DNA from: Candidatus Avilachnospira sp.
Lineage (GTDB): Bacteria > Bacillota > Clostridia > Oscillospirales > Oscillospiraceae
Assembly: GCA_045579045.1 (NCBI GenBank)
Contig: JAZNLL010000027.1
Coordinates: 4,724-68,723 of the forward strand
Reading direction: 5' to 3'
DNA length: 64,000 nt
Shown: positions 1 through 17,600 of the stretch, piece after piece
Numbering within the stretch: the stretch's first letter is position 1
Layout: the number at the start of each line of letters is the position of its first letter
Notes under the pieces: generated by a model
The model's input: only the letters and a program-made list of their open reading frames with translations
Databases searched by the model: none
Told to the model about the DNA's origin: nothing
Translations under genes and position numbers: made by a program

Positions 1-114
1 AGGGCCGAGATTGGTGTTATGTACAGCGATAATAGCCTTCAGACCGGCCTTCTCGTTGTTGACAAACAGAACTTTCTCGTGGCGGTAGTTGCTCATTTCA
101 GTCATTGCATTCAT
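1..114 (-). CDS. Leu/Val-type (Glu/Leu/Phe/Val family) amino-acid dehydrogenase, first 38 codons only (gene runs off the window)
   Basis: Not in ORF track because truncated. Reverse-strand ATG at 114 preceded by GGAGG. Translation MNAMTEMSNYRHEKVLFVNNEKAGLKAIIAVHNTNLGP resembles the conserved leucine dehydrogenase N-terminus (GLKAIIA-H-T-LGP). Lies 38 nt downstream of the OFOR gamma gene on the same strand. Confidence 0.65.
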   Translation of the reverse strand, partial: MNAMTEMSNYRHEKVLFVNNEKAGLKAIIAVHNTNLGP

Positions 115-152
115 AATATAAAACCTCCAAAATATAAATTGGGTTTTCGAAC

Positions 153-689
153 TTAGTGATATTCTTTACCCATCGTCAGAGCCTTCATGTTCAGCTCCAC
201 GAGAGCAGCCTTCTTGGGGGGAACCATGCTGCTGACAACAGCTTCTGTGCCTTCAAAGGACAGCTCGCTGCTATTCTGCAGCACATGACCCACAAGGATC
301 ATATTGGCAAGGGTGGCAATGCCTTCATCTTTTGCCATCTGGGTGGCAGGAATGTAGAACACTTCCACGTCGGTACGCTCAACCTTTTCGTTGATCAGGG
401 CACTGTCCACATAGATCTGACCGCCGGGAACAACGGCGTTCACATATTTCTGCAGAGAGGGCAGGTTCATTGCGATCAGCACATCGGGATTGGTGATAAT
501 GGGAGAACCCACAGGGGTCTCAGACAGGATCACGCTGCAGTTGGCGGTGCCGCCTCGCATCTCGGGACCGTAGGAAGGAAGCCAGGAGACCTGCAGATCT
601 TCCTTCAGACCCTTGTAGGCCAGAAACTTACCGGCAAACAGAACACCCTGTCCGCCGAAGCCGGCAATGAGGATTTGCGTCGTTTTCAT
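153..689 (-). CDS. 2-oxoacid:ferredoxin oxidoreductase, gamma subunit
   Basis: 178 aa. N-terminus ILIAGFGGQGVLFAGK and size are typical of the OFOR gamma subunit. Start overlaps the beta stop. Confidence 0.85.
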   Translation of the reverse strand: MKTTQILIAGFGGQGVLFAGKFLAYKGLKEDLQVSWLPSYGPEMRGGTANCSVILSETPVGSPIITNPDVLIAMNLPSLQKYVNAVVPGGQIYVDSALINEKVERTDVEVFYIPATQMAKDEGIATLANMILVGHVLQNSSELSFEGTEAVVSSMVPPKKAALVELNMKALTMGKEYH

Positions 690-1444
690 TACTTTTCCTC
701 CTTTGCAGCACTTCTGTCCTTATAGACACCGATGGGATAATAAGGCAGCATATCACTTTCCACCCACTCCAATGCCTTCTGGGGAGTCATGCCCCAGTTG
801 GTGGGACAGGCAGAGACCACTTCCACCAGAGAGAAGCCCTTGCCCTCGATCTGGTTCTGGAATGCCTTTTTGATGGCCTTCTTGGCATTGTTGACATTCT
901 TCACATTGTTGACTGCCACACGGGTCACATACTCAGGGCCTTCCAGAGTAGCCAGCATCTCGCAGACACGGATGGGCCAACCGCAGTGGTTGACGTCGCG
1001 TCCGTAGGGAGAAGTCTGGGTCACCTGACCGGGCAGGCTGGTGGGAGCCATCTGACCGCCGGTCATGCCGTAAATGGCATTGTTGACGAAGATGACGGTG
1101 ATATTTTCATTTCTGGCTGCGGAATGGACAGTTTCTGCCATACCGATGGAAGCCAGGTCGCCATCGCCCTGATAGGTAAAGACGATATTTTCGGGACGGC
1201 AGCGCTTGATGCCGGTGGCAACAGCGGGCGCTCTGCCGTGGGGTGCCTCGATCATATCGCAGGCGAAATAATCGTAAGCCATAACGGCACAGCCAACAGG
1301 TGCAACACCGATAGCCTTGCCTTCGATGCCCAGCTCATCGAGAGCTTCAGCGACCAGACGGTGGATAATACCGTGAGGGCAGCCGGGGCAGTAATGGAAG
1401 GGCGCATCCGTCAGGGACTTGGGTTTCTGAAAAACAACTGCCAT
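689..1444 (-). CDS. 2-oxoacid:ferredoxin oxidoreductase, beta (TPP-binding) subunit
   Basis: ORF 689..1492 trimmed to the internal ATG (MAVVFQKPK) at 1444, directly after the alpha stop at 1446. Cys-rich CPGCPHG and GDGD TPP-binding signature. Confidence 0.85.
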
Positions 1445-1445
1445 C

Positions 1446-2507
1446 TCAATACACTCCTTTCTGTGCGTTCCGCAGAGATTCGAGAACCTCATCGGGGCTG
1501 GGGATCATGCCGCCTGCACGGTTGCACAGACCAACGGGCTTCTTACAGTCGGTGGCCAGACGGACATCTTCGATCATCTGACCCATGCTCAGCTCCACGC
1601 TGACAAAGCCATTGACCTTCTCTGCTGCTGCAGCCAGAGCCTTCTTGGGGAAGGGCCACAGAGTGATGGGACGGATCAGACCGGCCTTGATGCCCTCTGC
1701 TCTTGCAGCAACAACTGCGTTCTTTGCCACGCGGGAAGCAATACCGAAGGCCACGACGCAGATTTCGGCATCTTCCATCATGTACTCTTCCCACATAGGC
1801 TCGTTCTCTTCCACAACGGCATACTTTTCAAACCGTTCGAAGTTCTTGGCTTCCAGCTCATCGGGCTTGAGGTACAGAGAGTTGACGATGTTGTGCTTTC
1901 TGGCGCACTCGGTACCGGTCAGAGCCCAGGGCTTTTCATAGGTATTGACTTCAGCATCCTCGAAGGAGATGGGCTCCATCATCTGACCGATGGTGCCGTC
2001 TGCCAAAATCATAGAAATCATGTTGTATTTATCAGCCAGATCAAAACCCTTGATGGTCAGACTGGCCATTTCCTGCACGGAGGCAGGTGCCAGAACGATC
2101 ATTCTGTAGTCGCCGTGACCGCCGCCCTTGGTGGCCTGGAAGTAATCGGACTGAGAAGGCTGGATGCCGCCCAGACCGGGGCCGCCGCGCTGGACATTGA
2201 CCACGAATGCGGGAACATCGGAACCGGCGATATAGCTGAGGCCTTCAGCCTTCAAAGAGATACCGGGGCTGGAGGAAGAGGTCATGACACGGGTGCCGGT
2301 AGCGGCTGCGCCGTAGACCATGTTGATAGATGCGATCTCACTTTCCGCCTGCAGGAACACACCGCCGATCTTGGGCAGCTTCTTTGCCATATAAGCAGCG
2401 ATCTCTGTCTGAGGGGTAATGGGATAGCCAAAGTAGTGACGGCAACCGGCACGGATGGCCGCTTCGGCGATGGCCTCGTTGCCTTTCATAAGTACGCGTT
2501 CTGCCAT
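1446..2507 (-). CDS. 2-oxoacid:ferredoxin oxidoreductase, alpha subunit
   Basis: 353 aa. [30 protein letters not shown] is the canonical POR/KOR/VOR alpha N-terminus. Confidence 0.85.
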
Positions 2508-2519
2508 AATTTGACCTCC

Positions 2520-2726
2520 TTACTTTTCCACGGTGATGATGCAGTCGGGGCACATGGTGGCACAGAAACCACAACCGACGCAGCTTTCTGCATCCTTCAT
2601 CACGGCCGGGGAATAACCCTTTTTGTTGATGGATCCGGTGTCGATGGTCAGACAGCCCTTCTTACAGGCGCTGACACACAGGCCGCAGCCTTTGCACAGA
2701 TCGGTGTTGAATGTGAGCTTTGGCAT
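2520..2726 (-). CDS. 2-oxoacid:ferredoxin oxidoreductase, delta subunit (2x[4Fe-4S] ferredoxin)
   Basis: 68 aa with two CxxCxxCxxxC(P) motifs (CKGCGLCVSAC, CVGCGFCATMCP). AGGAGG RBS upstream. Confidence 0.8.
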   Translation of the reverse strand: MPKLTFNTDLCKGCGLCVSACKKGCLTIDTGSINKKGYSPAVMKDAESCVGCGFCATMCPDCIITVEK

Positions 2727-2746
2727 TCTAATTCCTCCTAAACTGA

Positions 2747-3412
2747 TTACGTAGGTAAATCAAAATATTTTTCCTGCAGTTCCATGGAAAGCACAAGGCC
2801 GTCCAGTTTTCGGGCAACTTCTGCGGTTGCTGCATGCATCCACAGGGGCAGACCGGACAAACGGCAGAGGGAATTCAGTTTCTCTCCGGCACCGGTGACC
2901 GTTTCACAGGTGGTCTCCGGACCCAGATTGGTGTTGTGTACGATGCAGGTGAACTTCATTCCGCAGGCAGCTTCGATCTCACGCATCACTTCCAGGGCTT
3001 CTTCCGCCGTGGTTGTCAGAGGACGGCAGAAGTTGACCACAAAGGCCATGCGATAGTTATTCTCCTCCAGAATGAAGGGGGTAAATCTGCCAAGGGCATA
3101 GGCACCACGGTCATCGCCGCCGATGTCCATAACACCGTAGGTGCTTTGATCCTGCACCAAGCGGTAGCTCTCAGCAGGCAATGCCGGCAGATCCACATTG
3201 GTATTGGCAAACTTGGGAGAGATCAGATCCACACCGGCCTGCTCCAGCACCTTGGCGCTGTCCTTGGTGCGGAAATAGGGATTGACGATATCCAGATCGG
3301 CAATGCAGACCTTCTTCCCCTCCCCTGCCAGCTGCAGGGCATAGTTGACGGCAATGTTGGTCTTGCCGCTGCCATAATGACCTGCGAACAGAGTCAGTCG
3401 TTTGTGTTCCAT
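2747..3412 (-). CDS. P-loop NTPase (MinD/ParA/CooC-like), function unknown
   Basis: Walker A GHYGSGKTNIAV near the N-terminus and DLD Walker-B-like segment. ATG at 3412 (alternative GTG at 3418) abuts or overlaps the upstream synthetase stop (3415..3417). Confidence 0.6.
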   Translation of the reverse strand: MEHKRLTLFAGHYGSGKTNIAVNYALQLAGEGKKVCIADLDIVNPYFRTKDSAKVLEQAGVDLISPKFANTNVDLPALPAESYRLVQDQSTYGVMDIGGDDRGAYALGRFTPFILEENNYRMAFVVNFCRPLTTTAEEALEVMREIEAACGMKFTCIVHNTNLGPETTCETVTGAGEKLNSLCRLSGLPLWMHAATAEVARKLDGLVLSMELQEKYFDLPT

Positions 3413-3414
3413 GA

Positions 3415-5703
3415 TCACAGCTGCTTTCTGATAATTTTACCGCTGGTGGTCTTGGGAAGGCTTTCCCGGAACTCCACGATACGGGGATACTTATAAGGAG
3501 CGGTTCTGCGCTTGACGTAGTCCTGGATCTCCTTTTTCAGCTCGTCGGTACCCTTGAAGTCCTTCACCAGCACAATGCTGGCCTTGACCACCTGACCGCG
3601 AACCTCATCGGGAGCAGCGGAAACACCACATTCCAGAACATAAGGCAGTTCCATGATGACATTTTCGATTTCGAAGGGTCCGATGCGATAGCCGGAGGAC
3701 TTGATGACATCGTCCACACGACCCACATACCAGAAGAAGCCGTCCTCGTCCTTCCACGCCAGATCGCCGGTATGGTAGAAACCGTCGCGCCAGGTTTCTG
3801 CGGTGACCTCCGGGTTGCCCTCGTAGGCATAGCTGAGGCCGCAGGGCAGACCCTTGGAAATATCGATACAAATTTCGCCGTTTTCACCGACACCCACTTC
3901 GTTGCCATCGGCATCCAGCAGATGCACATCGTACAGGGGCACGGGCTTACCCATGGAGCCGATCTTGTGGCTGGAACCGGTCAGGTTACCGATGATCAGC
4001 GTGCTTTCGGACTGTCCGAAACCTTCCATGATCTCCAGACCTGTTGCCTTCTGGAACTGGCGGAAGACCTCCGGGTTCAGCGCTTCGCCGGCGATGGAGG
4101 CATGCTCGATGGAGCTGAGATCGAAGCGGCTCAGATCCTGCTTGATCAGCATGCGGTACATGGTAGGCGGTGCGCAGAAAGTAGTGATGCCGTACTTCTT
4201 GAACAGAGGCAAAATCTTCTCTGCATCGAACCGGTCAAAGTCATAGACAAAGATGGCAGCTTCGCACAGCCACTGGCCATAGAGCTTGCCCCACAGGGAC
4301 TTTGCCCAGCCTGTATCGGAGATGGTCAGGTGCAAGCCATCGGGATTGACCTGATGCCAATACTTGGCGGTGATAAAATGACCCAGCGGGTATTTATAGT
4401 TATGTGCAGCCATTTTGGGATAGCCGGAAGTGCCGGAAGTAAAGAACATCAGCATGGGATCGGAGCCGCAGGGGGCATCCTCCGCTCTTGCAAAATTGCT
4501 GTTGTACATGGTGTATTCTTCGTTAAAGTCGTGCCAGCCTTCCCGGCTGCCGCCGACCATGATCTTCAATGCCAGATCGGGACAAACTGCCGCAGCGGCA
4601 TCCACCTCGGAAGCAACATCGCCGTCAGCCGTACAGACAACGGCTTTTACCTTACCTGCCGTAAAGCGATAGGAGAAATCCTTTTCCTGCAGCTGATTGG
4701 TGGCAGGAATGACCACAGCACCCAGCTTGTGCAGACCCAGAATGGAGAACCAGAACTGATAGTGACGCTTCAGCACCAGCATGACGCGGTCGCCGCGCTT
4801 GATGCCCAGCGCCTTAAAGTAGTTGGCAGCTCTGGCGGATTCCTTTTTGATATCCTTGAAGGTGAAGCGGCGCTCGGTGCCATCCTCGCTCAGATGGAGC
4901 ATCGCCAGCTTTTCCGGCTTCCGCTCTGCCAGCGCATCCACCACATCAAAGGCAAAGTTGAACTTCTCTTCGTTCTTGAAATCAATGGCGGTCAGCTTGC
5001 CATCGGTTTCGGTGGGAATGATGAAGTCGCGGTAGATACGACCCTGATCGTCTTCCCGATGGGACTGACGGACAGGCTTGGCCTCTGTGGCAGCCTGCTC
5101 TTCCATTCTGGCTGCCTGATTGCGCAGAACAATGGCATAGAAGGAGCAGTCCTCACCGTCTACGGCGATCATACCGTGAGGAGTGGAGGAATCGTAGTAA
5201 ATACAGTCACCGGCACGGAGGACTTCCGTATGGCCGCCGATCTGGATGCGCATGCTGCCACTGATGACGATATCACATTCCTGACCTTCATGGGTCACCA
5301 GTTCGATATCTTCATACTCGGCACCGGGACGGTAGTTCAGTTCCATATACAGGGGCAGTGCAATACGGTTGCGGAAGTCTGCTGCCAGGTTGTAGCCCAC
5401 CATATGGTGTGCTTCTTCGATGCGCTGGCCCATGCCCTTTCGAGTCAGAGCATAAGAACGAAGCTTGGGGCTTCGGCCTTCCAGCAGGTCGCTCATATCA
5501 ACGCCAAAAGAAAGGCTGCAATGATACAGGAATGCAATGCTGAGGTTCTGGTTGCCGCTTTCGCACTGCAAGTATTCTTCCACGCTCACGCCGACGCGGG
5601 AAGCCATTTCCTCCACGGTAATACCGGTGATCTCACGAAGTTCGCGAATTCTATCGGCAGTTTCCTTTATTTTATAAGTCATGCCGGTCATGTTCTGTTC
5701 CAT
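3415..5703 (-). CDS. XRE-HTH + cupin + AMP-dependent acyl-CoA synthetase fusion (paralog 1)
   Basis: ORF 3415..5739 trimmed to ATG 5703 (MEQNMTG, GAGGTG RBS). Residues ~10-70 form an HTH_3-like segment (IRELREITGITVEEMASRVGVSVEEY). Residues ~120-200 are cupin-like (GQECDIVISGSMRIQIGGHTEVLRAGDCIYYDSSTPHG). The remaining ~540 aa are an AMP-binding enzyme (FFTSGTSGYPK, YHTGD, SGKIIR). Confidence 0.8.
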   Translation of the reverse strand: MEQNMTGMTYKIKETADRIRELREITGITVEEMASRVGVSVEEYLQCESGNQNLSIAFLYHCSLSFGVDMSDLLEGRSPKLRSYALTRKGMGQRIEEAHHMVGYNLAADFRNRIALPLYMELNYRPGAEYEDIELVTHEGQECDIVISGSMRIQIGGHTEVLRAGDCIYYDSSTPHGMIAVDGEDCSFYAIVLRNQAARMEEQAATEAKPVRQSHREDDQGRIYRDFIIPTETDGKLTAIDFKNEEKFNFAFDVVDALAERKPEKLAMLHLSEDGTERRFTFKDIKKESARAANYFKALGIKRGDRVMLVLKRHYQFWFSILGLHKLGAVVIPATNQLQEKDFSYRFTAGKVKAVVCTADGDVASEVDAAAAVCPDLALKIMVGGSREGWHDFNEEYTMYNSNFARAEDAPCGSDPMLMFFTSGTSGYPKMAAHNYKYPLGHFITAKYWHQVNPDGLHLTISDTGWAKSLWGKLYGQWLCEAAIFVYDFDRFDAEKILPLFKKYGITTFCAPPTMYRMLIKQDLSRFDLSSIEHASIAGEALNPEVFRQFQKATGLEIMEGFGQSESTLIIGNLTGSSHKIGSMGKPVPLYDVHLLDADGNEVGVGENGEICIDISKGLPCGLSYAYEGNPEVTAETWRDGFYHTGDLAWKDEDGFFWYVGRVDDVIKSSGYRIGPFEIENVIMELPYVLECGVSAAPDEVRGQVVKASIVLVKDFKGTDELKKEIQDYVKRRTAPYKYPRIVEFRESLPKTTSGKIIRKQL

Positions 5704-5721
5704 AATACACCTCAATAAAGG

Positions 5722-5996
5722 CAAAAAAGCCCGTCTCAAAGATTGATTCCTTGAGACGAGCTGTGATTCTTAGCCCGCGGTACCACTCAAATTGCATTTG
5801 CCTCACGGCAAATACCACTCATTGGGTGCCAACACACCCTAAGCACTGACGCAGCTGACGCGTGGAGGTTCTACGGCAAACGCTTTCTTCCTCCCGGCTC
5901 CGGAGCGACAAACTGCAGTTCCTACCATGGCTTGCACCAACCGCCAATTCTCTGAGGCAGAACTTCCGCTGTTTTTCTCCATCCTCGCTTTTGGAT
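5722..5996 (-). promoter_or_regulatory. T-box leader, specifier read as GUC (Val), with its promoter just upstream
   Basis: Promoter: -35 TTGACA (6031..6026), 17 nt, -10 TATGAT (6008..6003). AG bulge AGAGAA plus distal loop GGUUGGUGCAA. T-box core AAUUUGAGUGGUACCGCGGG (5793..5774). Terminator CUCGUCUCAA...UUGAGACGGG + U6 (5760..5723). Specifier GUC at 5909..5907 in the register GAUGGAG...GUC-G-CUCC-GGAG. UGGU bulge implies an A73 tRNA. Confidence 0.85.
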
Positions 5997-6060
5997 GTAG
6001 GAATCATACCACTATTTCAGAAAAATGTCAACACTTAATTCGTTACTGTGCTAAAGTTTA

Positions 6061-8328
6061 TTAGAGCTTATTGCGCTGGATCTTACCGGAGATCGTCTTG
6101 GGCAATTCCGTACGGAACTCCACGATACGGGGATACTTGTAGGGAGCCGTTCTGGTCTTGACGTAGTTCTGGATCTCCTTCTTCATTTCTTCGGTACCTT
6201 CGGTACCGGGAACCAGCACGATACAGGCCTTGACGACCTGACCGCGAACCTCATCGGGGGCAGCACAGACACCGCATTCCAGAACGTAGGGCAGTTCCAT
6301 GATGGTGCTTCCGATCTCGAAGGGCCCGATGCGGTAGCCGGAGGACTTGATGACATCGTCGGCACGTCCGACATACCAGTAGTAGCCATCTTCATCCCGC
6401 CAGGCCACATCGCCCGTATGGTACATACCGTCATGCCAGACATCGTTGGTGGCTTCTTCGTTGCGGTAGTAGCCCAGGAAGACACCGCAGGTGGGCTTGG
6501 GATCGGTACGGATGACGATCTCGCCGTTGATACCATCTTCCACAGGGTTGCCGTCGGCATCCACAATGTCGATGCCGTAGCCGGGAACCGGCTTGCCCAT
6601 GGCACCGGGCTTGATGATGGCGCCATAGAGGTTTGCAATACCCAGAGTCATTTCCGTCTGGCCAAAGCCTTCGTGGATCCGCAGACCCGTCGCCTTTTCG
6701 AACTGATAGAAGACCTCCGGATTCAGTGCCTCACCGGCAGTGGTGGCATGGTGGATGGAGCTGAGATCGTAACCGCTGAGATCCTGCTTGATCAGCATGC
6801 GGTACATAGTGGGAGGTGCGCAGAAGGTGGTGATGTTGTACTTTGCGAACATGGGCAGAATTTTCTCTGCATCAAAGCGGTCAAAGTCGTAGGTAAACAC
6901 AGCACCTTCGCAGAGCCACTGGCCGTAGAGCTTGCCCCACAGTGCCTTGCCCCAGCCGGTTTCGGAGATAGTAAAATGCAGACCGTCACGCTCACACAGA
7001 TGCCAGTACTTGGCAGTGACATAGTGACCCAGGGCATACTTATAGGAATGGGTTGCCATCTTGGGATAGCCGGTGGTACCGGAAGTGAACAGCATCAGCA
7101 TGGGATCGCTGCCGCAGGGAGCATCTTCCTCCCGGACATAGCGACGGGAGAAGAGGCTGTACTCCTGATCGAAATCATGCCAACCTTCTGCCTTGCCGCC
7201 GACCATGATCTTCGTCATGCTCATGCCGGCAGTCTTTTCTGCCAGATCGATCTGACCGGCCGTATTGCCGTCAGCCGTGCAGAGAACTGCACTCACATCT
7301 GCAGCCTGGAAGCGGTACACGAAATCCTTTTCCATCAGCTGATTGGTAGCAGGGATGGCGATGGCACCCAGCTTGTGCAGACCCAGAATGGCGAACCAGA
7401 ACTGGTAATGGCGCTTCAGCACCAGCATGACGCGGTCGCCGCGCTTGATGCCCAGAGACTTGAAGTAGTTGGCGCTCTGGCTGGAAGCATCCTTGAAATC
7501 CTTAAAGGTGAAGCGGCGCTCGGTCATGTCATTGGCGACATGGATCATGGCGAGCTTCTCAGGCTCACGGCGAGCGATGGCATCCACTGTATCAAATGCG
7601 AAGTTATAAGTATCTTCGTCGGAGAAGGTAATATTCTGCAGCGCACCGTTTTCGTCTTCCTGTGCATTGACAAACTTGTCGCACAGCAGCTTCTGCTGAG
7701 ACTTGCCCTTGCGGCTCAAACCGGTATACAGAGGCTGGTCGGTGGTATCAGAAGCCATAATCATGGACAGGAACACGCAGTCCTGACCGTCAATGGCCAG
7801 CTGACCGTGAGGGGTGGAGGACTTGAAGAAGATGCTGTCGCCTTCACGCAGAGTCTCTTCATGGTCCCCGACCTTGATCCGCATAGCACCCTTGATGACC
7901 AGATTGTATTCCTGACCGGCATGGGTAACGGTATGGATGGGCTTATTCTGCAGTTCCTCGGAATATTTGTAGGTAACCCAGTAAGGAGTTGCCAGCTTCT
8001 TGCGGAACATGGGAGCCACGTCCTGAATGATAATGCCATCCTCACTGGCAGTCACCAGACCCTTGCCGCGGCGAGTCACTGTATAGCCGGACAGCTTGGC
8101 GCTGTGGCCTTCCAGCAGAACAGTAATCTCAACACCGAAAACCTTTGCGCACTTATGCAGGAACGTAAAAGGCAGATCCACCGTGCCGGTTTCGTACTGA
8201 CGGTAGCTTTCTTCCGAAACCTCGGTCAGCTCTGCCATCTTCTGAGTGCTGTAACCCAAAATGTCACGCATACCCTGAATACGTGCGGCGATATCCATCA
8301 GCTGTGTTGTGGGATTCATGTTACTCAT
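6061..8328 (-). CDS. XRE-HTH + cupin + AMP-dependent acyl-CoA synthetase fusion (paralog 2)
   Basis: ORF 6061..8505 trimmed to ATG 8328 (MSNMNPTT); the upstream part of the ORF is the T-box leader. Same three-part architecture as 3415..5703 and collinear with it (LFTSGTTGYPK, YHTGD, SGKIQR). Confidence 0.8.
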   Translation of the reverse strand: MSNMNPTTQLMDIAARIQGMRDILGYSTQKMAELTEVSEESYRQYETGTVDLPFTFLHKCAKVFGVEITVLLEGHSAKLSGYTVTRRGKGLVTASEDGIIIQDVAPMFRKKLATPYWVTYKYSEELQNKPIHTVTHAGQEYNLVIKGAMRIKVGDHEETLREGDSIFFKSSTPHGQLAIDGQDCVFLSMIMASDTTDQPLYTGLSRKGKSQQKLLCDKFVNAQEDENGALQNITFSDEDTYNFAFDTVDAIARREPEKLAMIHVANDMTERRFTFKDFKDASSQSANYFKSLGIKRGDRVMLVLKRHYQFWFAILGLHKLGAIAIPATNQLMEKDFVYRFQAADVSAVLCTADGNTAGQIDLAEKTAGMSMTKIMVGGKAEGWHDFDQEYSLFSRRYVREEDAPCGSDPMLMLFTSGTTGYPKMATHSYKYALGHYVTAKYWHLCERDGLHFTISETGWGKALWGKLYGQWLCEGAVFTYDFDRFDAEKILPMFAKYNITTFCAPPTMYRMLIKQDLSGYDLSSIHHATTAGEALNPEVFYQFEKATGLRIHEGFGQTEMTLGIANLYGAIIKPGAMGKPVPGYGIDIVDADGNPVEDGINGEIVIRTDPKPTCGVFLGYYRNEEATNDVWHDGMYHTGDVAWRDEDGYYWYVGRADDVIKSSGYRIGPFEIGSTIMELPYVLECGVCAAPDEVRGQVVKACIVLVPGTEGTEEMKKEIQNYVKTRTAPYKYPRIVEFRTELPKTISGKIQRNKL

Positions 8329-8349
8329 TACTTTCAACCCTTTCTGGAA

Positions 8350-8612
8350 AATAAAAAAACGCCTCAAGAATTTCTTCTTGAGACGAGTCATTCTATACCC
8401 GCGGTACCACTCAAATTGCAGCCGTAGCTGCCACTTCAGACTCCAATAAGTCCTATCCCTTAACGCGGGCAAACGGGAAAGCCTGGCAGCATCTGCTCGG
8501 CTCACCGGCTCGGAAGTGATGGGCTTTCGGGCAACAAACCGTCGACTCGCACCAACCGTCGACTCTCTGAAGATTCATACACCTAGCCGTCTTCGTCACA
8601 GCCTTTTTCGAT
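8350..8612 (-). promoter_or_regulatory. T-box leader, specifier read as AUC (Ile), with its promoter just upstream
   Basis: Promoter: -35 TTGACA (8649..8644), 17 nt, -10 TAGATT (8626..8621). K-turn/base GACGAAG, AG bulge AGAGAG, distal loop GGUUGGUGCGA. Specifier AUC at 8520..8518 in the register AUC-A-CUUC-CGAG, identical to the thrS leader. T-box core (8417..8398). Terminator hairpin + U7 (8388..8353). Confidence 0.85.
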
Positions 8613-8719
8613 ATGCCCATAATCTACCACATTTCTTTTTCCTTGTCAATTCTTTTTTTGTTTAAAGCGAAAGAATTTTTCTTCTTGACAAATTGCAAGG
8701 TTTGTGATTAAATGCTTTC

Positions 8720-8991
8720 ATACACATTAGAAAAAACGTTGACGGAAAATCCTTTCTGTTCAGAAGCTTCAGAGAGCCGGTGGCTGCTGCGAACCGGTGC
8801 GGAGAACAGATCGGTCTGCTTCCTGAGTTGGCTCTGTGAACCCGTTTCGGACGGTCAGTAATGGAGCCCGGCCTCCTCCGTTACCGGGATAGGACTTACT
8901 GGAGTCCGATGAGAGACCCCGTTCCGGGGTAATCAGGGTGGTACCGCGAATAATTTTCGTCCCTGAGGTCTTGTGACCTCAGGGATTTTTT
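8720..8991 (+). promoter_or_regulatory. T-box leader, specifier probably CUG (Leu), with its promoter just upstream
   Basis: Promoter: -35 TTGACA (8685..8690), 17 nt, -10 TTAAAT (8708..8713). Base GACGGAA, AG bulge AGAGAG (8771..8776). F-box CCGUUA (8878..8883). T-box core AAUCAGGGUGGUACCGCGAA (8931..8950). Terminator CCCUGAGGUC...GACCUCAGGG + U6 (8961..8991). Specifier CUG 8816..8818 in the register CUG-C-UUCC-UGAG; the base after the codon is C rather than the usual purine, so confidence in the codon is lower. Confidence 0.8.
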
Positions 8992-9013
8992 CATTCCAAA
9001 GGAGCTGTATATT

Positions 9014-10420
9014 ATGAAAATGATCAAACTGTCCGATGTCACCATGAAGCAGGTTGTCGACGGTTTCAGCCTGTCTTTCAAAGAGAAGATCGAACTGGCA
9101 AAGCTGCTGGATAAATTGGGAGTCTGTGTCATCGAACTGGAAGGCATCGAAAACGCCCGCATTGACAGTCTGCGAATCAAGTCCATCGCTTCGTCTGTGA
9201 CTAACAGCATTGTTGCCGTTCCCGTTCAGTTGACGGCAGACAGCCCCGCTCAGGTTTGGTCTGCTCTGCAGCAGGCAAAGCTTCCCCGCCTGCAGGTCTG
9301 CGGTGCCGTCAGCGCCGTTCAGATGGAGTATCTGTTCCACAAAAAGCAGGATGCCATGCAGAAAGCCATCGTGGACACCATCACCGCCTGCAAGGCCTTG
9401 TGTGCCGATGTGGAGTTCCTGGCCGACGATGCCACCCGTGCAGATCCCGCGTTCCTCGCCTCCACTTTGAAAGCCGCTATCGCTGCCGGTGCGACAACCG
9501 TCACCGTCTGTGATACTGCCGGTTCCATGCTGCCTGCCGAGTTCGCTCAGTTCATCAAGGAACTGTATGAGGCCGTTCCCGAAATGAAGAATGTCAATGT
9601 GGGTGTCAGCTGCTGTAACACCCTGTCCATGGCTGATGCCTGTGCCATCGCCGCTGTCGGTGAAGGTGTCACCGAACTGAAATCTGCCGCATATCCCATC
9701 GATGTTGCCAGCCTTGCCAATCTGGCAAAACTGCTGTCCGCCAGAGGGGATTGCTTCCATGTAAGCACTTCCGTTCAGATGACCCAGCTGAGCCGCATCA
9801 TGGACCGTGTGTATCAGATCTGCCAGACCGGTAGCACAAAGGGTTCTGCAATGACCGCAGCCCAGACAGATTCCGATATTTATCTGACCGCCCACGACGA
9901 CGTTGCAGCCGTGACCAAGGTTGCCGAACAGTTGGGTTACGATCTTTCTGAAGACGACAGCATGAAGGTCTATGAAGCCTTCAAGCAGATCGCCGCCAAG
10001 AAAGAACAGGTCAGCTCCAAGGAACTGGATGCCATTATCGCCTCTGCCGCATTGCAGGTACCTCCCACCTACAAGCTGGATACCTTCGTGATTACCTCCG
10101 GCAACACCATTTCTTCCACCGCTCATATCAAGCTGATGAAGAACGGTCAGCCCATGGAAGGTGTTTCCATCGGAGACGGCCCCATCGATGCCGCCTTTGT
10201 TGCCATCGAAAACATCACCGGCTGCCATTACGAGCTGGATGACTTCCAGCTGCAGGCTGTGACCGAGGGCCGCAGCGCCATGGGTCAGACCGTGGTGAAA
10301 CTCCGCAGCGGCGGCAAGGTCTATTCCGGCAAGGGCATTTCTACGGACATTGTGGCAGCCGGTATCCATGCCTACCTGAGTGCTCTGAACAAGATCGTTT
10401 ATGAGGAGGAAGAAGCATGA
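9014..10420 (+). CDS. LeuA/CimA-family (HMGL-like TIM barrel + LeuA regulatory domain) protein with degenerate active site
   Basis: 468 aa, collinear with 2-isopropylmalate synthase. DTTLRDGEQ is replaced by DVTMKQVVD and H-x-H-D-D by SCCNT. The C-terminal GDGPIDAAFVAIENI...GISTDIVAAGIHAYLSALN is a well-preserved LeuA_dimer regulatory domain. Confidence 0.75.
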   Translation: MKMIKLSDVTMKQVVDGFSLSFKEKIELAKLLDKLGVCVIELEGIENARIDSLRIKSIASSVTNSIVAVPVQLTADSPAQVWSALQQAKLPRLQVCGAVSAVQMEYLFHKKQDAMQKAIVDTITACKALCADVEFLADDATRADPAFLASTLKAAIAAGATTVTVCDTAGSMLPAEFAQFIKELYEAVPEMKNVNVGVSCCNTLSMADACAIAAVGEGVTELKSAAYPIDVASLANLAKLLSARGDCFHVSTSVQMTQLSRIMDRVYQICQTGSTKGSAMTAAQTDSDIYLTAHDDVAAVTKVAEQLGYDLSEDDSMKVYEAFKQIAAKKEQVSSKELDAIIASAALQVPPTYKLDTFVITSGNTISSTAHIKLMKNGQPMEGVSIGDGPIDAAFVAIENITGCHYELDDFQLQAVTEGRSAMGQTVVKLRSGGKVYSGKGISTDIVAAGIHAYLSALNKIVYEEEEA

Positions 10421-12930
10421 GACTCTCATTCTCTACCAGAGGCTGGCCCAGCTTAACCTGGGATGAAATGGTAGATACCGCTCTGGACATGGGCTTTACC
10501 GGTATCGAAGTGTATAATCTGCCTAAATTTGATGAGATGCTGGCCAAAGGCGGCCCCTTCCACCAATACCAGACAGCCGCCACTGTTCGTGATCTTCGGG
10601 AAAAGAAGCTGACGATCCCCTGCTTCGACACCTCCTGCGATCTGTCCGCAGATCCCGATGCCGTAGCAGTTCTGACCAATTTGATCGAAATCGCCAAAAA
10701 TGCACAAGTCAAGCACGTAGTCGCCTGCGCGCTGAGCGACAAGGAAGAAGTCGTTCGTGATGCATTATGTCAACTTGTTCCTGTGGCAGAAAAGGCCGGT
10801 GTTTCTCTGCTTCTCAAGACCAGCGGCATCTATGCCGACACCGCCCGTCTGCGGAATATGCTGGATCAGTTCGCCAGCGACAATCTGGGTGCCCTTTGGG
10901 ATGTCCACCATCCTTACCGGGATTTTGGTGAAAGCGGCGATGCCACCATCAAGAACCTGGGTTCCTATGTTTGCCATGTCCACCTGCGCGATTCCGATGA
11001 CGAAGGCACCTATCAGCTCATCGGTGAAGGCACCATGCCCATTGCCGATGTGATGCGTGCCCTTTCCTCCGTCAATTACGATGGTTTCATCTCTTTGGAA
11101 TGGAAGCCGGAATGGCTGGAGGATCTGCAGGACCCGGAGATCATCTTCCCCTACTTCGTCAATTACATGGCCCGGTTCCATTCCACCCGGGGCATGAAGA
11201 AGAAGCTCTATCCCAACCACGACGGTACCGGTCAGTACATCTGGAAAAAGGATGAACTCATCAACCTGACCTTCCCTCAGGTTCTGGACCGTGTGGCAGA
11301 AGAGTTCCCGGACCAGTACTGCTTTAAGTACACCACCCTGGATTACACCCGAACCTATGCCCAGTTCCGCGAAGATGTGGATCGGTTCGCCAGAGCACTG
11401 GTGTCCATGGGCGTCAAGGCCGGCTCCAAGGTAGCCATCTGGGCAACCAATGTGCCTGCCTGGTTCATCACCTTCTGGGCAACTACCAAAATCGGTGCCG
11501 TTCTGGTCACAGTCAATACTGCCTATAAGATTCACGAAGCGGAATATCTGCTCCGCCAGTCCGACACCCACACGCTGGTCATGATCGACAGCTGTCTGGA
11601 TTCCAACTATGCCCGGATCATCAATGAACTCTGTCCCGAAATCGCCAAGACCAAGGCCGGCGATCCTCTCCACTGCAAGAGACTCCCCTTCCTGCGCAAT
11701 GTCATCACCGTTGGCTTCAAGCAGCCCGGCTGTCTGACCTTCGACGAGGCCATGGCAAGATATGAACTGGTCAGCCGGGAGCAGGTCGCTCAGATGGCTG
11801 CCGCCGTCCGTCCCGACGATGTCTGCAACATGCAGTATACCTCCGGTACCACCGGTTTCCCGAAGGGTGTTATGTTAACTCACCACAACGTTGTCAACAA
11901 CGGCAAATGCATCGGTGACCGCATGGGTCTTTCCACTGCCGACCGCATGATGATTCAGGTTCCTATGTTCCACTGCTTCGGCATGACCCTTTCCATGACC
12001 TCCTCCATGACCCATGGCGCCACCATGTGTCCCATGCCCTACTTCTCCGCTACATCTTCCCTCGCCTGCATCAATCAGGAGAAGATCACAGTTTTCAATG
12101 GTGTTCCCACCATGTTCATTGCCATGTTCAACCATCCGGATTACCGGAAAACCGATTTCTCCCATATGCGAACCGGCATCATGGCAGGTGCAGGCTGTCC
12201 TCCCGAACTGATGCGCAGAGCCGCACAGCCTGATGAAATGAACATGTACGGCATTGTCAGTGTTTATGGACAGACCGAATGTGCTCCCGGCAACACCATG
12301 AGTTCCTGGACGGATTCTCTGGAAGTCCGCACCGACACCGTCGGCTATGCCTTCCCCCATGTGCAGTGCAAGATCATCGATCCCGAAACCGGAGAAGAAG
12401 TCGGTCCCGGTGTCAACGGTGAATTCTGTGCCAAGGGCTACAACACCATGAAGGGTTATTACAAAATGCCTCAGGCAACTGCCGACACCATTGATGCAGA
12501 AGGCTGGCTCCATTCCGGCGACCTGGCCTGCAGGGATGAAGACGGCAACTATCGGATCACCGGCCGTCTGAAAGATATGATTATCCGCGGCGGTGAAAAC
12601 ATCTATCCCAAGGAGATTGAGGAATTTATCTACACCCATCCCCAGACCAAGGATGTTCAGGTCATCGGTGTTCCCGACAAGAAATACGGCGAAGAGATCA
12701 TGGCCTGTATCATTCTGAAGGAACCCGGCTCTGTGACCGTGGAAGAAATGACCGCCTACATCAAGGCCAGCATGGCACGGCATAAGGTTCCCAAATACAT
12801 CTCCTTCGTGGACAGCTTCCCCATGAATGCCGCAGGTAAGATTCTGAAGTATAAAATGCGCGAAGCTGCCGCTAAGGAACTGGGCTTGGTCGGTGACGGT
12901 GCCGATACGGCAGGCCCCGGCAAAGTATAA
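10417..12930 (+). CDS. Xylose-isomerase-like TIM barrel (sugar-phosphate isomerase/epimerase fold) fused to an AMP-dependent acyl-CoA synthetase (paralog 3, FadD-like)
   Basis: 837 aa. The N-terminal ~260 aa have AP_endonuc_2-like features (MRLSFSTRGW..., HVHLRD, ISLEW). The C-terminal ~570 aa have YTSGTTGFPKG, GYYK, SGD, GRLKD, GKILK. Start overlaps the upstream stop (ATGA). Confidence 0.8.
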   Translation: MRLSFSTRGWPSLTWDEMVDTALDMGFTGIEVYNLPKFDEMLAKGGPFHQYQTAATVRDLREKKLTIPCFDTSCDLSADPDAVAVLTNLIEIAKNAQVKHVVACALSDKEEVVRDALCQLVPVAEKAGVSLLLKTSGIYADTARLRNMLDQFASDNLGALWDVHHPYRDFGESGDATIKNLGSYVCHVHLRDSDDEGTYQLIGEGTMPIADVMRALSSVNYDGFISLEWKPEWLEDLQDPEIIFPYFVNYMARFHSTRGMKKKLYPNHDGTGQYIWKKDELINLTFPQVLDRVAEEFPDQYCFKYTTLDYTRTYAQFREDVDRFARALVSMGVKAGSKVAIWATNVPAWFITFWATTKIGAVLVTVNTAYKIHEAEYLLRQSDTHTLVMIDSCLDSNYARIINELCPEIAKTKAGDPLHCKRLPFLRNVITVGFKQPGCLTFDEAMARYELVSREQVAQMAAAVRPDDVCNMQYTSGTTGFPKGVMLTHHNVVNNGKCIGDRMGLSTADRMMIQVPMFHCFGMTLSMTSSMTHGATMCPMPYFSATSSLACINQEKITVFNGVPTMFIAMFNHPDYRKTDFSHMRTGIMAGAGCPPELMRRAAQPDEMNMYGIVSVYGQTECAPGNTMSSWTDSLEVRTDTVGYAFPHVQCKIIDPETGEEVGPGVNGEFCAKGYNTMKGYYKMPQATADTIDAEGWLHSGDLACRDEDGNYRITGRLKDMIIRGGENIYPKEIEEFIYTHPQTKDVQVIGVPDKKYGEEIMACIILKEPGSVTVEEMTAYIKASMARHKVPKYISFVDSFPMNAAGKILKYKMREAAAKELGLVGDGADTAGPGKV

Positions 12931-13004
12931 CCGGATCACCCTCTCCCCTGATGCAGATGTTCTGTATCAGGGGCAGCATTTGACTTTGAAAAGAGATAAT
13001 CGCA

Positions 13005-13718
13005 ATGAAATGGAAAGAATTTTTTGCCGGTGTTAAAGCCGGCATGCCGGTATGCATCGGATATTTCTCCGTCAGCTTCGGTTTCGGTGCCATGGCTGTG
13101 GCACAGGGTCTGACCATTTGGCAGGCCATTCTGATCTCTGCCTCCAATCTGACCAGCGCAGGTCAGTTCGCAGGTCTGACGGTCATTTCCGCCGGTGCAG
13201 CCATTGTAGAAATGATACTGACCCAGCTGGTCATCAACAGTCGCTATGCACTGATGAGTCTTGCTCTGGGCCCTCGGTTCGGCCCCAATGTAGGAACAGG
13301 AAAGCGGCTTTTTGCCGCCTTCTTCAACACAGACGAGGTCTTTGCTCTGGGCATGTCCAGAGGTAAAAACCTGACAACCGCCTTCTTTGTCGGTGCCGGT
13401 GTGATCTCTGCCGTTGGCTGGACAAGCGGTACCGCCATGGGAGCCATCGCCGGCTCTCTGCTGCCGGAATCTATTCGTATGGCACTGGGTGTCATGCTCT
13501 ACGGTATGTTCATCGCCATTGTCGTTCCACAGGCAAAAGAAGAAAAGCCGCTTTTGGCTTCCGTGGTGCTGGCATTGGTCTTTAGCTGCCTGTTTGCATG
13601 GCTTCCCCTTCTGAAGCAGGTCTCTGCCGGTCTGGCAATCGTCATCTGCACGGTTGCAGCAGCTTCCGTGTGTGCCCTGCTGTTCCCCGTGAAGGAAGAA
13701 GAGGAGGCTGCACCATGA
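13005..13718 (+). CDS. azlC: AzlC-family branched-chain amino acid transport protein
   Basis: 237 aa polytopic protein. N-terminus FFAGVKAGMPVCIGYFSVSFGFGAMA...SNLTSAGQFAG is typical of AzlC. Confidence 0.8.
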   Translation: MKWKEFFAGVKAGMPVCIGYFSVSFGFGAMAVAQGLTIWQAILISASNLTSAGQFAGLTVISAGAAIVEMILTQLVINSRYALMSLALGPRFGPNVGTGKRLFAAFFNTDEVFALGMSRGKNLTTAFFVGAGVISAVGWTSGTAMGAIAGSLLPESIRMALGVMLYGMFIAIVVPQAKEEKPLLASVVLALVFSCLFAWLPLLKQVSAGLAIVICTVAAASVCALLFPVKEEEEAAP

Positions 13719-14023
13719 GTATTTATGTTTATATTCTTGTCATGGCAGTCACGACGTATCTGATCCGGGCACTGCCTCTTACCCTGCTGAAGAAGCCCAT
13801 TCAAAACCGGTTTTTGAAATCATTTTTGCACTATGTTCCTACCGCCTGTCTGACCGCAATGACCTTTCCCGCCATCCTTTCCGCCACAGAAAACTGGATC
13901 AGTGGTGCCATCGGTCTGGCCGTCGGTGTTCTGCTGGCATTGAAAAAGAAAAGCCTGATCGTGGTGGCCGTCGCAAGCTGCGCAGCCGTGTTCCTCACGG
14001 AACAGATCATCAAATATATATAA
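13715..14023 (+). CDS. azlD: AzlD-family branched-chain amino acid transport protein
   Basis: ORF 13598..14023 trimmed to ATG 13715 (MSIYVYILVMAVTTYLIRALP), overlapping the azlC stop (ATGA). ~100 aa hydrophobic partner of AzlC. Confidence 0.75.
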   Translation: MSIYVYILVMAVTTYLIRALPLTLLKKPIQNRFLKSFLHYVPTACLTAMTFPAILSATENWISGAIGLAVGVLLALKKKSLIVVAVASCAAVFLTEQIIKYI

Positions 14024-14025
14024 TA

Positions 14026-14055
14026 AATATCCCCCCGCATAGCGGGGGGATATTT
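14026..14055. terminator. Bidirectional intrinsic terminator between convergent azlD and the ACT-MBL gene
   Basis: AATATCCCCCCGC-ATA-GCGGGGGGATATT palindrome flanked by A/T runs. Confidence 0.75.
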
Positions 14056-15511
14056 ATTTTACAGAATAGTCCGCTGGTGATCCATGGGAGCCGAAAATCT
14101 TCCAATCTCCAACGCCCAATCTTCGCATAATGGCTTTTCTTTCATCACTGCAGAGCTTGGGGTCTGTATCTACAGAAGTCATCAGGATCGGTGCATACTG
14201 ATTGTACGCAGCCTGTTCCGAAGTCAGCCCGTGCGTGTTGATATAGACATCACCTGTAAACGCAATATTGTTATGATAGTCGATCAGAACGATTTCGCCC
14301 GGCAAATGGCCCCCTTTTCCTTCGTACACTTCAAAATGCAAGTCACCGAAGTCAAAAAAACCGATCTGTGTCAGCGGCTCCCGCAGATCCGGGATGTTTT
14401 GCCACGGCGTTTTCAGCTTTTCGGGGTCGATAGCCTTGTAGGATGTAAGGGTTTTACAAATGCTGATATACGGTTTATGCAGCGGATTCTGCTCCCGGAA
14501 ACCGTTGTCTCCGTAGAATTCATTCTGCAGACTCAACGCAGATCTGCAGCTGACGATCACTTCATCAAATTCGTTCATCAGACCACAGTGATCCACATCT
14601 GCATGGGTTAGGAGCAAGCACTTGGGAAGCCTGTTAAATTCGGGAACAACCGTCTGCATTACCGAAAGCATTTCATCTCTGTAGCAGGCATAGCCGCTGT
14701 CAATGCAAAGTATCTTCCCAAAACTCTTGATGATCGCAGTATTGCTTCCGCAAGCAGGTTCGATCAGAATGATTTCTGTATTCGGTGTGATGGTATGTGT
14801 TGTGATTCTGGGAACAAATCGGTCACTCTTAGACTTCGCCAGCAGTTCGGCAAATTTGCTGATACTGTCAAAAGTCCGGTAAGGCGATAACCCCTGTTCA
14901 TCCAGCGTCTGCATCGCAAGATTGGAGGATACCAAAAGGCACTGCTTCTGTTCATCACTGAGATCTAGCAGCTGCGAAAGACCGCGTACGAAGGCACTGT
15001 AGAAAATGCTGTTGTCGTAAGCTCGTTCGGAACTGTTGTAATCAATCGCTCTGACTTTACACAGCCGTTCCGCCTGCTCAATAAAAGCCGTGATTCGATC
15101 GGGATCTTCCACATGCAGACCCATTTTGAAATGCTGATAATCCGTCCCGTTTTCCTGAGAATTGATGTAGGAGATATTGAAATTGAATGTGTTAATCAGT
15201 TCAAGGACATCCGTAACACTGCCGGGGACATCTCTCAGCCAGAACTCAAGCAAAACAATGCTGGAATTTCCGGCATTATCCTGAAGATATCCGATTTTTT
15301 CCAGTTCCAGATCCGCTTTTAGTATTTGCTCCTCTGTGCCGTCCACATCCAAAAACAGCATATGAGAGTCCACCGCTTTGTCATAGCTGACACGGGTAAT
15401 ATTTATGCCAAGATCCGCAAAGCATTTGCTGGCCTTCAGAAATGCTCCGATATGGTTTGGCATCGAGGTTGCATAGGTTTTTTTCACAGTAATCACCGCC
15501 AATTGCATCAT
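14054..15511 (-). CDS. Tandem ACT-like domains fused to an MBL-fold metallo-hydrolase
   Basis: 485 aa. Two ACT-like beta-alpha-beta-beta-alpha-beta segments in the first ~160 aa. C-terminal MBL signature LLLTHADVDHCG, later GGHLPGE, FTGD, GSHG. Confidence 0.6.
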   Translation of the reverse strand: MMQLAVITVKKTYATSMPNHIGAFLKASKCFADLGINITRVSYDKAVDSHMLFLDVDGTEEQILKADLELEKIGYLQDNAGNSSIVLLEFWLRDVPGSVTDVLELINTFNFNISYINSQENGTDYQHFKMGLHVEDPDRITAFIEQAERLCKVRAIDYNSSERAYDNSIFYSAFVRGLSQLLDLSDEQKQCLLVSSNLAMQTLDEQGLSPYRTFDSISKFAELLAKSKSDRFVPRITTHTITPNTEIILIEPACGSNTAIIKSFGKILCIDSGYACYRDEMLSVMQTVVPEFNRLPKCLLLTHADVDHCGLMNEFDEVIVSCRSALSLQNEFYGDNGFREQNPLHKPYISICKTLTSYKAIDPEKLKTPWQNIPDLREPLTQIGFFDFGDLHFEVYEGKGGHLPGEIVLIDYHNNIAFTGDVYINTHGLTSEQAAYNQYAPILMTSVDTDPKLCSDERKAIMRRLGVGDWKIFGSHGSPADYSVK

Positions 15512-15543: not shown

Positions 15544-15978
15544 TCACCGTTCTTCTCTGCATTTCACAACCGCCTCGGTCACATTGCTTATGACATGGAC
15601 ATTGTGTTGGTTGTATACTTCAATGGTGATCTCCACAATTCCGTTTCTGCTGCTGCGCTGCACAAGATTGGTGATCTCCGCTTTGCCGCGGAGAATATCT
15701 CCTGCATAGACTGGCCTGTGCCATTCAATTCTGGTGGATTTTCCTGCAATCAGTGCTTCTCCCACCAGATCCTGCTCCAGATACTTTGCCCACACCGACA
15801 TAAAGGACATTACACCGGGTGCGATCAGCTGACCGAAGGGAGAGGCTTTTGCATATTCCTCATCGGTGTGCAGAGGGATATTGTCGTAATCACGGGCAAA
15901 CGCCATCATTTTTTCTTTTTCGATAACCGTCGGTGCGATCTCAACGGTCATACCCAGTTTTAAATCTTCAAAATACAT
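15544..15978 (-). CDS. MaoC-like (R-specific enoyl-CoA hydratase / hot-dog fold) dehydratase
   Basis: 144 aa. IPLHTDEEYAKASPFGQLIAPG is the MaoC dehydratase signature. Confidence 0.75.
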   Translation of the reverse strand: MYFEDLKLGMTVEIAPTVIEKEKMMAFARDYDNIPLHTDEEYAKASPFGQLIAPGVMSFMSVWAKYLEQDLVGEALIAGKSTRIEWHRPVYAGDILRGKAEITNLVQRSSRNGIVEITIEVYNQHNVHVISNVTEAVVKCREER

Positions 15979-17565: not shown

Positions 17566-17600
17566 AAAAAAAGAAGCCACTGTTGGTGGCGTCTTCTTTT

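Follow-up and report, generated by a model that had tools for sequence, protein, structure and literature searches.

Val, Ile and Leu T-box leaders preceding different acyl-CoA ligases: a candidate regulon for branched-chain amino acid synthesis from branched short-chain acids

The DNA analysed here (the window) is a stretch of 64,000 nucleotides of contig JAZNLL010000027.1 from a Candidatus Avilachnospira genome. Three T-box leaders with three different specifier codons, for valine, isoleucine and leucine, are packed within 3.3 kb of it, and they precede operons for three different AMP-forming acyl-CoA ligases, which we call ACS1 (Val leader), ACS2 (Ile leader) and the TIM-barrel ligase (Leu leader). 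We consider it likely that this locus is a T-box regulon that makes Val, Ile and Leu from the branched short-chain acids of the gut and rumen. A salvage regulon of this kind had been put forward earlier from the window alone (the original prediction). The comparison with related loci described below supports it as far as sequences can, with corrections that concern domain fusions in the ligases, a LeuA-like gene and the enzymes shared between the branches.

Results

Three T-box leaders read Val, Ile and Leu codons

A T-box leader reads an uncharged tRNA by means of its specifier codon and a UGGN bulge, and termination of transcription is thereby prevented. We searched the window with the Rfam covariance model RF00230 (gathering score 93), supplemented by a scan based on E-values. 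The Leu leader (8730-8967, plus strand, 107.1 bits) and the Ile leader (8376-8608, minus strand, 102.5 bits) exceeded the gathering score. The E-value scan added two full-length matches under this score, the Val leader (5749-5994, minus strand, 82.5 bits, E 2e-16) and a leader at 50907-51127 (minus strand, 71.5 bits), which is located 5′ of the gene for threonyl-tRNA synthetase (thrS) and served as a control. All four span model positions 1-219 and contain the AG bulge, the distal loop and the T-box core. The cores read GGUGGUACCGCG or AGUGGUACCGCG, and terminators overlap their 3′ halves; for the three leaders of the locus the terminator scan placed them at 5762-5728, 8385-8360 and 8959-8986. 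Three complete leaders between about 5.7 and 9.0 kb, each with these elements and with a UGGU bulge, had been claimed before, and all of this was recovered; the bulge of the thrS leader is UGGA. The leaders extend as follows, from promoter to terminator.

5728..6031, minus strand: Val T-box leader, specifier GUC at 5909-5907, UGGU bulge at 5785-5782, promoter and terminator
8360..8649, minus strand: Ile T-box leader, specifier AUC at 8520-8518, UGGU bulge, promoter and terminator
8685..8992, plus strand: Leu T-box leader, specifier CUG at 8816-8818, UGGU bulge, promoter and terminator

The three specifiers and the ACC of the thrS leader fall into common columns of RF00230. In the printed alignments the columns "uuc a" are occupied by CUG-C, AUC-A, GUC-G and ACC-A, and in all four leaders the codon and one further base are followed by a 4-bp helix and then by the NGAG of the kink-turn (K-turn). 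The register of the original prediction, which included the ACC of thrS, agrees with these model columns. A promoter had also been proposed for each leader. For the two minus-strand leaders the promoter scan gave strong matches (TTGACA-N17-TATGAT and TTGACA-N17-TAGATT), while the promoter of the Leu leader on the plus strand (TTGACA at 8685-8690, TTAAAT at 8708-8713) was assigned by eye only.

Specifier codons covary with the ligase clades in related loci

For the comparison we collected 80 loci (labelled L0xx), one genome per species, that encode ACS1 relatives with 65-95% identity. All are from Faecousia, Acutalibacteraceae, Oscillospiraceae and other metagenome-assembled genomes of Clostridia from the ruminant or human gut. 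The order leader-ACS2, ACS1, P-loop ATPase and oxidoreductase subunits delta, alpha, beta and gamma is kept in almost all of them. In 54 of the 80 a leader followed by the LeuA-like gene and the TIM-barrel ligase is present as well, and this operon is found in three kinds of position relative to the oxidoreductase cluster: divergent upstream, upstream on the same strand, or downstream.

Specifiers in these loci were called by a K-turn-anchored rule. As controls, the caller returned ACC for thrS, UUC for pheS, AUG for a metY-like gene and UGG for a trpB-like gene. Leaders of ACS1 carry GUC (n = 16) or GUA (n = 32), and five more with variant K-turns were read by eye as GUA or GUC. All 63 leaders called for ACS2 carry AUC. 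Leaders of the LeuA-like operon carry CUG (n = 27), CUC (n = 18) or CUU (n = 4), so that each of the 49 called specifiers is a Leu codon. A neighbour-joining tree of 145 ligases consists of two pure clades, ACS1 (n = 80) and ACS2 (n = 65), and specifier and ligase clade covary perfectly except for a single locus (L032, see below). This covariation is the check that had been suggested earlier, and it was positive in the 80 genomes.

RNAalifold was applied to 41 Stem I sequences and gave 18 base pairs, 17 of them with compensatory changes. It recovered the K-turn stem, the 4-bp helix and the upper helices independently, and the codon occupies the same columns in the three sets of leaders. Within a gene clade, synonymous codons are exchanged without a change of the amino acid, which supports both the register and the identity of the amino acid. 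Misplaced specifiers were considered and rejected, since the Rfam alignment, RNAalifold and the K-turn-anchored caller concur and synonymous codons alternate within clades. Covariance and structure analyses thus agree on codons for branched-chain amino acids (BCAA), as originally read, and not on others.

The Val and Ile operons encode ligases and a four-subunit oxidoreductase

The genes behind the two minus-strand leaders are:

6061..8331, minus strand: ACS2, XRE-type helix-turn-helix (HTH), cupin and AMP-forming acyl-CoA ligase, 756 aa, 59% identical to ACS1
3415..5703, minus strand: ACS1, XRE-HTH, cupin and AMP-forming acyl-CoA ligase, 762 aa, assigned by Pfam; best NCBIfam model MbcS
2747..3418, minus strand: P-loop ATPase of the MinD/ParA/Mrp class, 223 aa, weak Pfam ParA and CbiA matches
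2520..2726, minus strand: oxidoreductase delta subunit, ferredoxin-like with two [4Fe-4S] clusters, 68 aa, NCBIfam delta-subunit matches
1446..2507, minus strand: oxidoreductase alpha subunit, VorB type, NCBIfam NF005507 (VorB) 545.5 bits, cut-off 399
689..1492, minus strand: oxidoreductase beta subunit (thiamine pyrophosphate), Pfam TPP_enzyme_C and NCBIfam matches of the PorB_KorB type; translation probably begins at the ATG near 1444
153..689, minus strand: 2-oxoacid:ferredoxin oxidoreductase gamma subunit, Pfam POR, 4e-35
1..112, minus strand: amino acid dehydrogenase of the Glu/Leu/Phe/Val family, 5′ end (37 codons), last gene of the Val operon, continuing beyond the window

Between the Ile leader and the Val promoter there is one gene, ACS2. 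Only about 30 nt separate its stop codon from the −35 box of the Val promoter, and this interval holds no terminator. Behind the Val leader come ACS1, the P-loop ATPase, the four oxidoreductase subunits in the order delta, alpha, beta, gamma, and the start of the dehydrogenase gene. A four-subunit 2-oxoacid:ferredoxin oxidoreductase had been recognised before and is confirmed: delta, beta and gamma subunits accompany an alpha subunit of the VorB type, which assigns the enzyme to the type of 2-ketoisovalerate:ferredoxin oxidoreductase (VOR). A specificity for 2-oxoglutarate or pyruvate, which would have spoken against the original prediction, appears not to apply, as the alpha subunit passes the VorB model.

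The P-loop ATPase is encoded between ACS1 and the delta subunit in nearly all 80 loci, and its motifs GHYGSGKTN, DLDIVNPYFR and DIGGDDRGA are conserved. No close solved structure was found for it. An electron-activating role like that of NifH was rejected, because no Cys is conserved.

Of the Leu/Val dehydrogenase named in the original prediction the family is confirmed, with only the first 37 codons inside the window; the full length was obtained from the orthologue in the closest relative (L048), a protein of 343 aa with the Pfam domains ELFV_dehydrog_N and ELFV_dehydrog. A 343-aa ELFV dehydrogenase follows the gamma subunit in about two thirds of the loci. In a clade with 65-68% identity (L058-L078) the operon ends instead with an IlvE of 354 aa. 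The protein encoded 13 nt after the gamma subunit in L060 scores 483.4 bits with NF009897 (IlvE, cut-off 307) and is thus an IlvE equivalog. Both ELFV-type dehydrogenases and IlvE interconvert branched 2-oxo acids and amino acids. The presence of these unrelated enzymes in the same operon slot is good evidence that a 2-oxo acid is the intermediate on the VOR side. Just after the dehydrogenase gene of L048, at about 13140 (plus strand), we also noticed a T-box with a GCC (Ala) specifier 5′ of an open reading frame (ORF) of 630 aa.

ACS1 and ACS2 are relatives of MbcS with an additional N-terminal module

All three synthetases, named in the original prediction as AMP-dependent enzymes, turned out to be fusions. 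In ACS1 and ACS2 the Pfam domains HTH_19 and Cupin_2 form an extra N-terminal module of about 240 aa ahead of AMP-binding and AMP-binding_C. The two proteins are about 38% identical in this module and about 70% identical in the catalytic part. Among at least 8,000 scored relatives of this fusion, the best 120 all share the full architecture; few of them are named, and the names are generic. The best NCBIfam model is MbcS (NF047394) with 431.6 bits for ACS1 and 425.7 bits for ACS2. As the cut-off of 850 is not reached, the two enzymes are, by these scores, relatives of MbcS and not members of the MbcS equivalog.

MacsMa of Methanosarcina acetivorans (PDB 3ETC) can be aligned with the catalytic part of ACS1 from one end to the other (E 1e-192). 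The preferred substrate of MacsMa is 2-methylbutyrate, and Trp259 forms an alternate acyl pocket in this enzyme (PMC10455477). Both features of this pocket recur in ACS1: the Trp of LWGK, and the Gly of FGQ(S/T)E, which is the Trp-to-Gly exchange seen in medium-chain enzymes. The ACS1 and ACS2 clades differ by fixed residues at only six positions, five of them in the HTH/cupin module. The only one in the catalytic part, located four residues ahead of the pocket Trp, is Ala467 in ACS1 and Gly460 in ACS2, and MacsMa also has Gly there. Ala467 would fit a smaller pocket for a C4 acid, which is only suggestive. For MbcS, Km values below 10 µM for 2-methylbutyrate and isobutyrate and above 500 µM for isovalerate were reported (PMC10026030). 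Enzymes of the MbcS type are thus good on alpha-branched acids and poor on isovalerate, a beta-branched acid, which would explain why two paralogues serve Val and Ile and a ligase of another family serves Leu. Based on these similarities and on the codons of the leaders, we propose that ACS1 is the isobutyrate ligase of the Val channel and ACS2 the 2-methylbutyrate ligase of the Ile channel.

Inspection of the promoter regions of the three leader sets identified no conserved operator for the HTH module. Many Faecousia loci (L006, L010, L011, L017, L026 and others) have a direct-repeat motif, TTTTGCA-N-TTTTGCAC, 60-90 nt 5′ of the promoters, in the intergenic region from which the Ile and Leu leaders diverge. 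It may be the site of a regulator and is not present in the window.

The Leu operon combines a LeuA-like protein with a ligase of another family

The plus-strand operon comprises:

9014..10420, plus strand: LeuA-like protein, 468 aa, Pfam HMGL-like and LeuA_dimer, first gene after the Leu leader
10417..12930, plus strand: fusion of a xylose-isomerase-like TIM barrel and an AMP-forming acyl-CoA ligase, 837 aa, proposed isovalerate ligase of the Leu channel
13005-13718, plus strand: AzlC, Pfam AzlC 127 bits
13715-14023, plus strand: AzlD, Pfam AzlD 64.5 bits

Each leader had been predicted to be followed by a different acyl-CoA synthetase. The three ligases are indeed distinct, but the Leu leader first meets the LeuA-like gene. 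With 298 bits against a cut-off of 532 for LeuA in NCBIfam, this protein misses every LeuA cut-off. It shares with LeuA the HMGL-like barrel and the regulatory (dimerisation) domain, but lacks the Arg-Asp of RDGEQ and both His of HxH, which are metal and substrate ligands: compared to solved isopropylmalate synthases, DTTLRDGEQ is replaced by DVTMK--Q and HCH by SCC. Among 54 aligned orthologues, of which the commonest variants were viewed, the RDGEQ and HxH positions are non-canonical and variable. Mean conservation in these orthologues is 54% in the barrel and 76% in the LeuA regulatory domain. From this we infer that the protein is a catalytically dead pseudo-isopropylmalate synthase that is retained for its leucine-binding domain.

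The start of the TIM-barrel ligase overlaps the stop of the LeuA-like gene by 4 nt. Its identity to ACS1 is only 25%. Conservation is 85% in the ligase domain and 63% in the barrel, which keeps the motifs WDVHHP, HVHLRD and SLEWK of the xylose isomerase family. A search for a characterised specific relative of the ligase domain or the barrel returned generic matches only, and public names of relatives are limited to "AMP-binding protein" or "AMP-dependent synthetase". For the pair of pseudo-LeuA and TIM-barrel ligase at least 8,000 relatives were scored, of which the best 120 share the full architecture; again few are named, and generically. The chances that this ligase acts on isovalerate, as opposed to some other leucine-related chemistry, are about even. 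The assignment to isovalerate derives only from the Leu codon, the linkage to the VOR cluster and the weakness of MbcS-type enzymes with isovalerate.

AzlC and AzlD were found in adjacent genes by Pfam, in line with the AzlCD noted in the original prediction, while the NCBIfam azlC equivalog cut-off is missed (42 versus 332). No terminator precedes azlCD, and the terminator scan found a strong bidirectional terminator behind them (14022-14058), so that in the window AzlCD appears to belong to the transcription unit of the presumably starvation-induced Leu operon. AzlCD is commonly regarded as a branched-chain amino acid exporter. Given its placement here, a role in the uptake of leucine or a branched acid would be more plausible than export. 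Among the loci compared, AzlCD is linked to the Leu operon in the genome of the window only.

Across the related loci no gene is generally conserved 3′ of the TIM-barrel ligase. In seven distant loci (L054, L060, L064, L068, L069, L072, L074) a gene of the Amidohydro_2 family follows it directly. The window has a homologue with 39% identity 3 kb from the Leu operon (15989-16777, minus strand), in a minus-strand group with a MaoC-like hot-dog protein (15544-15978) and a protein with ACT and metallo-beta-lactamase domains (14054-15511).

Discussion

Proposed pathway

In the pathway that we propose, tRNA-Val, tRNA-Ile or tRNA-Leu, when uncharged, would bind to its own leader by pairing with the specifier (GUC, AUC and CUG, respectively) and with the UGGU bulge. 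By the established T-box mechanism, this pairing would stabilize the antiterminator and let transcription enter the genes. Each leader would free one AMP-forming ligase, and the CoA esters would be formed from isobutyrate by ACS1, from 2-methylbutyrate by ACS2 and from isovalerate by the TIM-barrel ligase. The VOR-type oxidoreductase, with reduced ferredoxin, would then reductively carboxylate the acyl-CoA to the 2-oxo acid, which the amino acid dehydrogenase, or IlvE in other species, would convert to the amino acid. Transcripts started at the Ile promoter would run through ACS2 into the Val leader. The direction of synthesis is deduced from the AMP-forming ligases, which lead from the acid to the thioester, and from the control by uncharged tRNA, which signals that the amino acid is short.

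It is conceivable, though on balance doubtful, that the pathway is gated twice, by tRNA charging at the RNA level and by the free amino acid or acid acting on a protein sensor at each ligase. In such a scheme the XRE-HTH and cupin module would be the sensor on the Val and Ile ligases, and the dead LeuA-like protein would be the leucine sensor for the translationally coupled Leu ligase. By analogy to BirA, the HTH could even make these adenylate-forming ligases DNA-binding "trigger enzymes".

Evidence against the proposal and alternative explanations

Several observations weigh against the proposed regulon. The base 3′ of the specifier is frequently a non-purine, and it is C in the Leu leader of the window. 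No specific feature connects the third ligase with isovalerate, and its TIM-barrel domain and the presumably dead LeuA-like partner have no place in a simple pathway. VOR and the aminating enzyme always accompany ACS1, which in the window places them behind the Val leader alone. Since these shared enzymes are gated by Val only, amino acid resolution is confined to the ligase step, and starvation for only Ile or only Leu would have to be met by basal or leaky expression of VOR and the aminating enzyme. Moreover, of the 73 loci with both paralogues, 23 lack the Val leader (L004, L006, L008, L011, L013, L016, L019, L021, L022, L024, L026-L029, L031, L033-L035, L038, L040, L042, L044, L063). The gap between ACS2 and ACS1 in these loci, −3 to 146 nt, leaves no room for a leader; ACS1 and VOR are coupled to ACS2 under the Ile leader, or are preceded by a plain promoter and a short hairpin. 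The Ile and Leu leaders are nearly universal in the related loci. The layout with three switches is therefore the majority state and not invariant, and the amino-acid-resolved gating of the original prediction stands for the ligase step but not for the shared enzymes. In L032 an AUC leader (3650-4140) lies directly 5′ of an ACS1-clade gene and ACS2 is missing, which could be due to a deletion between tandem leaders or to a collapse in the assembly.

The weak points of the third operon lead to an explanation in which the Val and Ile parts work as proposed, but leucine is supplied by other chemistry or from another substrate and not by activation of isovalerate. The motifs kept by the TIM barrel suggest a catalysis of its own, and this view gains from a ligase domain that has no specific characterised relative and from the Amidohydro_2 gene behind the ligase in the seven distant loci. 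It is harder to reconcile with a Leu codon in every called leader and with the linkage of the Leu operon to the VOR cluster in three gene orders, and the poor activity of MbcS-type enzymes on isovalerate is a gap that exactly this ligase would fill. We regard such an alternative source of leucine as unlikely, but as deserving serious attention.

The family assignment of ACS1 and ACS2 raises the question of lipid synthesis. The proven role of MbcS, their best family match, is lipid priming, and ligases that scavenge branched acids to prime branched-chain membrane fatty acids, as MbcS does in Staphylococcus aureus, might respond to T-boxes since primers derived from amino acids fall short together with the amino acids themselves. 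VOR and the dehydrogenase or IlvE in the ACS1 operon would be superfluous for priming, however, MbcS itself has no known T-box control, and a dependence of these gut Clostridia on branched-chain lipids is not known. This makes lipid priming improbable as the function of the locus. Finally, the cluster might run oxidatively and ferment branched-chain amino acids to branched acids, as VOR and dehydrogenases of the Leu/Val type are reversible and work oxidatively in amino acid fermenters. But AMP-forming ligases push the acid towards the CoA ester and not the reverse, and a T-box that is switched on when the amino acid is lacking gives the wrong signal for degradation. We consider this direction very improbable. 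Synthesis of the three amino acids from branched acids is hence the reading that we prefer.

Other features of the window

Two further riboswitches were found. A glycine riboswitch with a single aptamer (61 bits; 45864-45951, minus strand) lies directly 5′ of the gene at 44528-45784 (minus strand), which encodes a serine hydroxymethyltransferase (Pfam SHMT 545 bits) and is not a glycine-cleavage operon. A ZMP/ZTP riboswitch is located at 39260-39340 (plus strand, 66.9 bits). An ORF at 17132-17674 (minus strand) was assigned by eye from its sequence as similar to IS200/IS605-type transposases. It overlaps a sub-threshold match to an STnc490-like RNA (17438-17555), and a tRNA with anticodon CCC (17604-17674) adjoins these two features.

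Significance and comparison with known systems

That rumen and gut anaerobes need or profit from branched acids, which they turn into Val, Ile and Leu, has been recognised for decades, and isoacid supplements are in use in ruminant feeding. The locus would provide the first candidate genes for this synthesis in gut and rumen anaerobes. The candidate gene set is complete and occurs widely in Oscillospiraceae, Faecousia and Acutalibacteraceae. Each ligase is tagged by the codon of its T-box, from which its substrate can be predicted, and this makes the hypothesis directly testable. With this locus, acyl-CoA ligases, VOR and a pseudo-enzyme would join the list of T-box targets, and metabolic models of amino acid auxotrophy and of cross-feeding in the gut would gain.

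The original prediction considered the arrangement of one codon per synthetase to be undescribed, and we likewise found no description in the literature searched, although a prior mention is possible. In the full texts searched, no paper ties T-boxes to acyl-CoA ligases or VOR, with the same reservation, and neither CoA enzymes nor oxidoreductases come up in the main text of the survey of T-boxes by Wels et al. (2008). As RNA elements the leaders are ordinary T-boxes, and VOR, ligases of the MbcS/Macs type and reductive carboxylation are each known already. What appears to be new is the combination, in which T-boxes control acyl-CoA ligases and VOR and each ligase has a codon of its own.

The conversion of isobutyrate, 2-methylbutyrate and isovalerate to Val, Ile and Leu by reductive carboxylation goes back to classical labelling work in the rumen, and a passage of PMC10658910 cites it for methanogens. 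The overall conversion proposed here is the same, but that work is biochemical, and no genes or regulation for it are named in the literature searched. Compared to MacsMa and MbcS, both of which favour alpha-branched short acids, ACS1 and ACS2 are alike in the catalytic part and differ by the HTH and cupin extension of about 240 residues, by T-box control and by the linkage to VOR. The oxidoreductase has the same four subunits and VorB-type alpha subunit as the VOR of archaea and anaerobes; here it is encoded in a T-box operon together with a ligase and a P-loop ATPase, and would work in the direction of carboxylation. The leaders share RNA family, logic and all structural elements with known BCAA T-boxes, such as the Leu T-box of the ilv-leu operon of Bacillus subtilis. 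Known BCAA T-boxes control enzymes of the de novo ilv/leu pathways or transporters, while the leaders described here are targeted to acyl-CoA ligases, VOR and an aminating enzyme.

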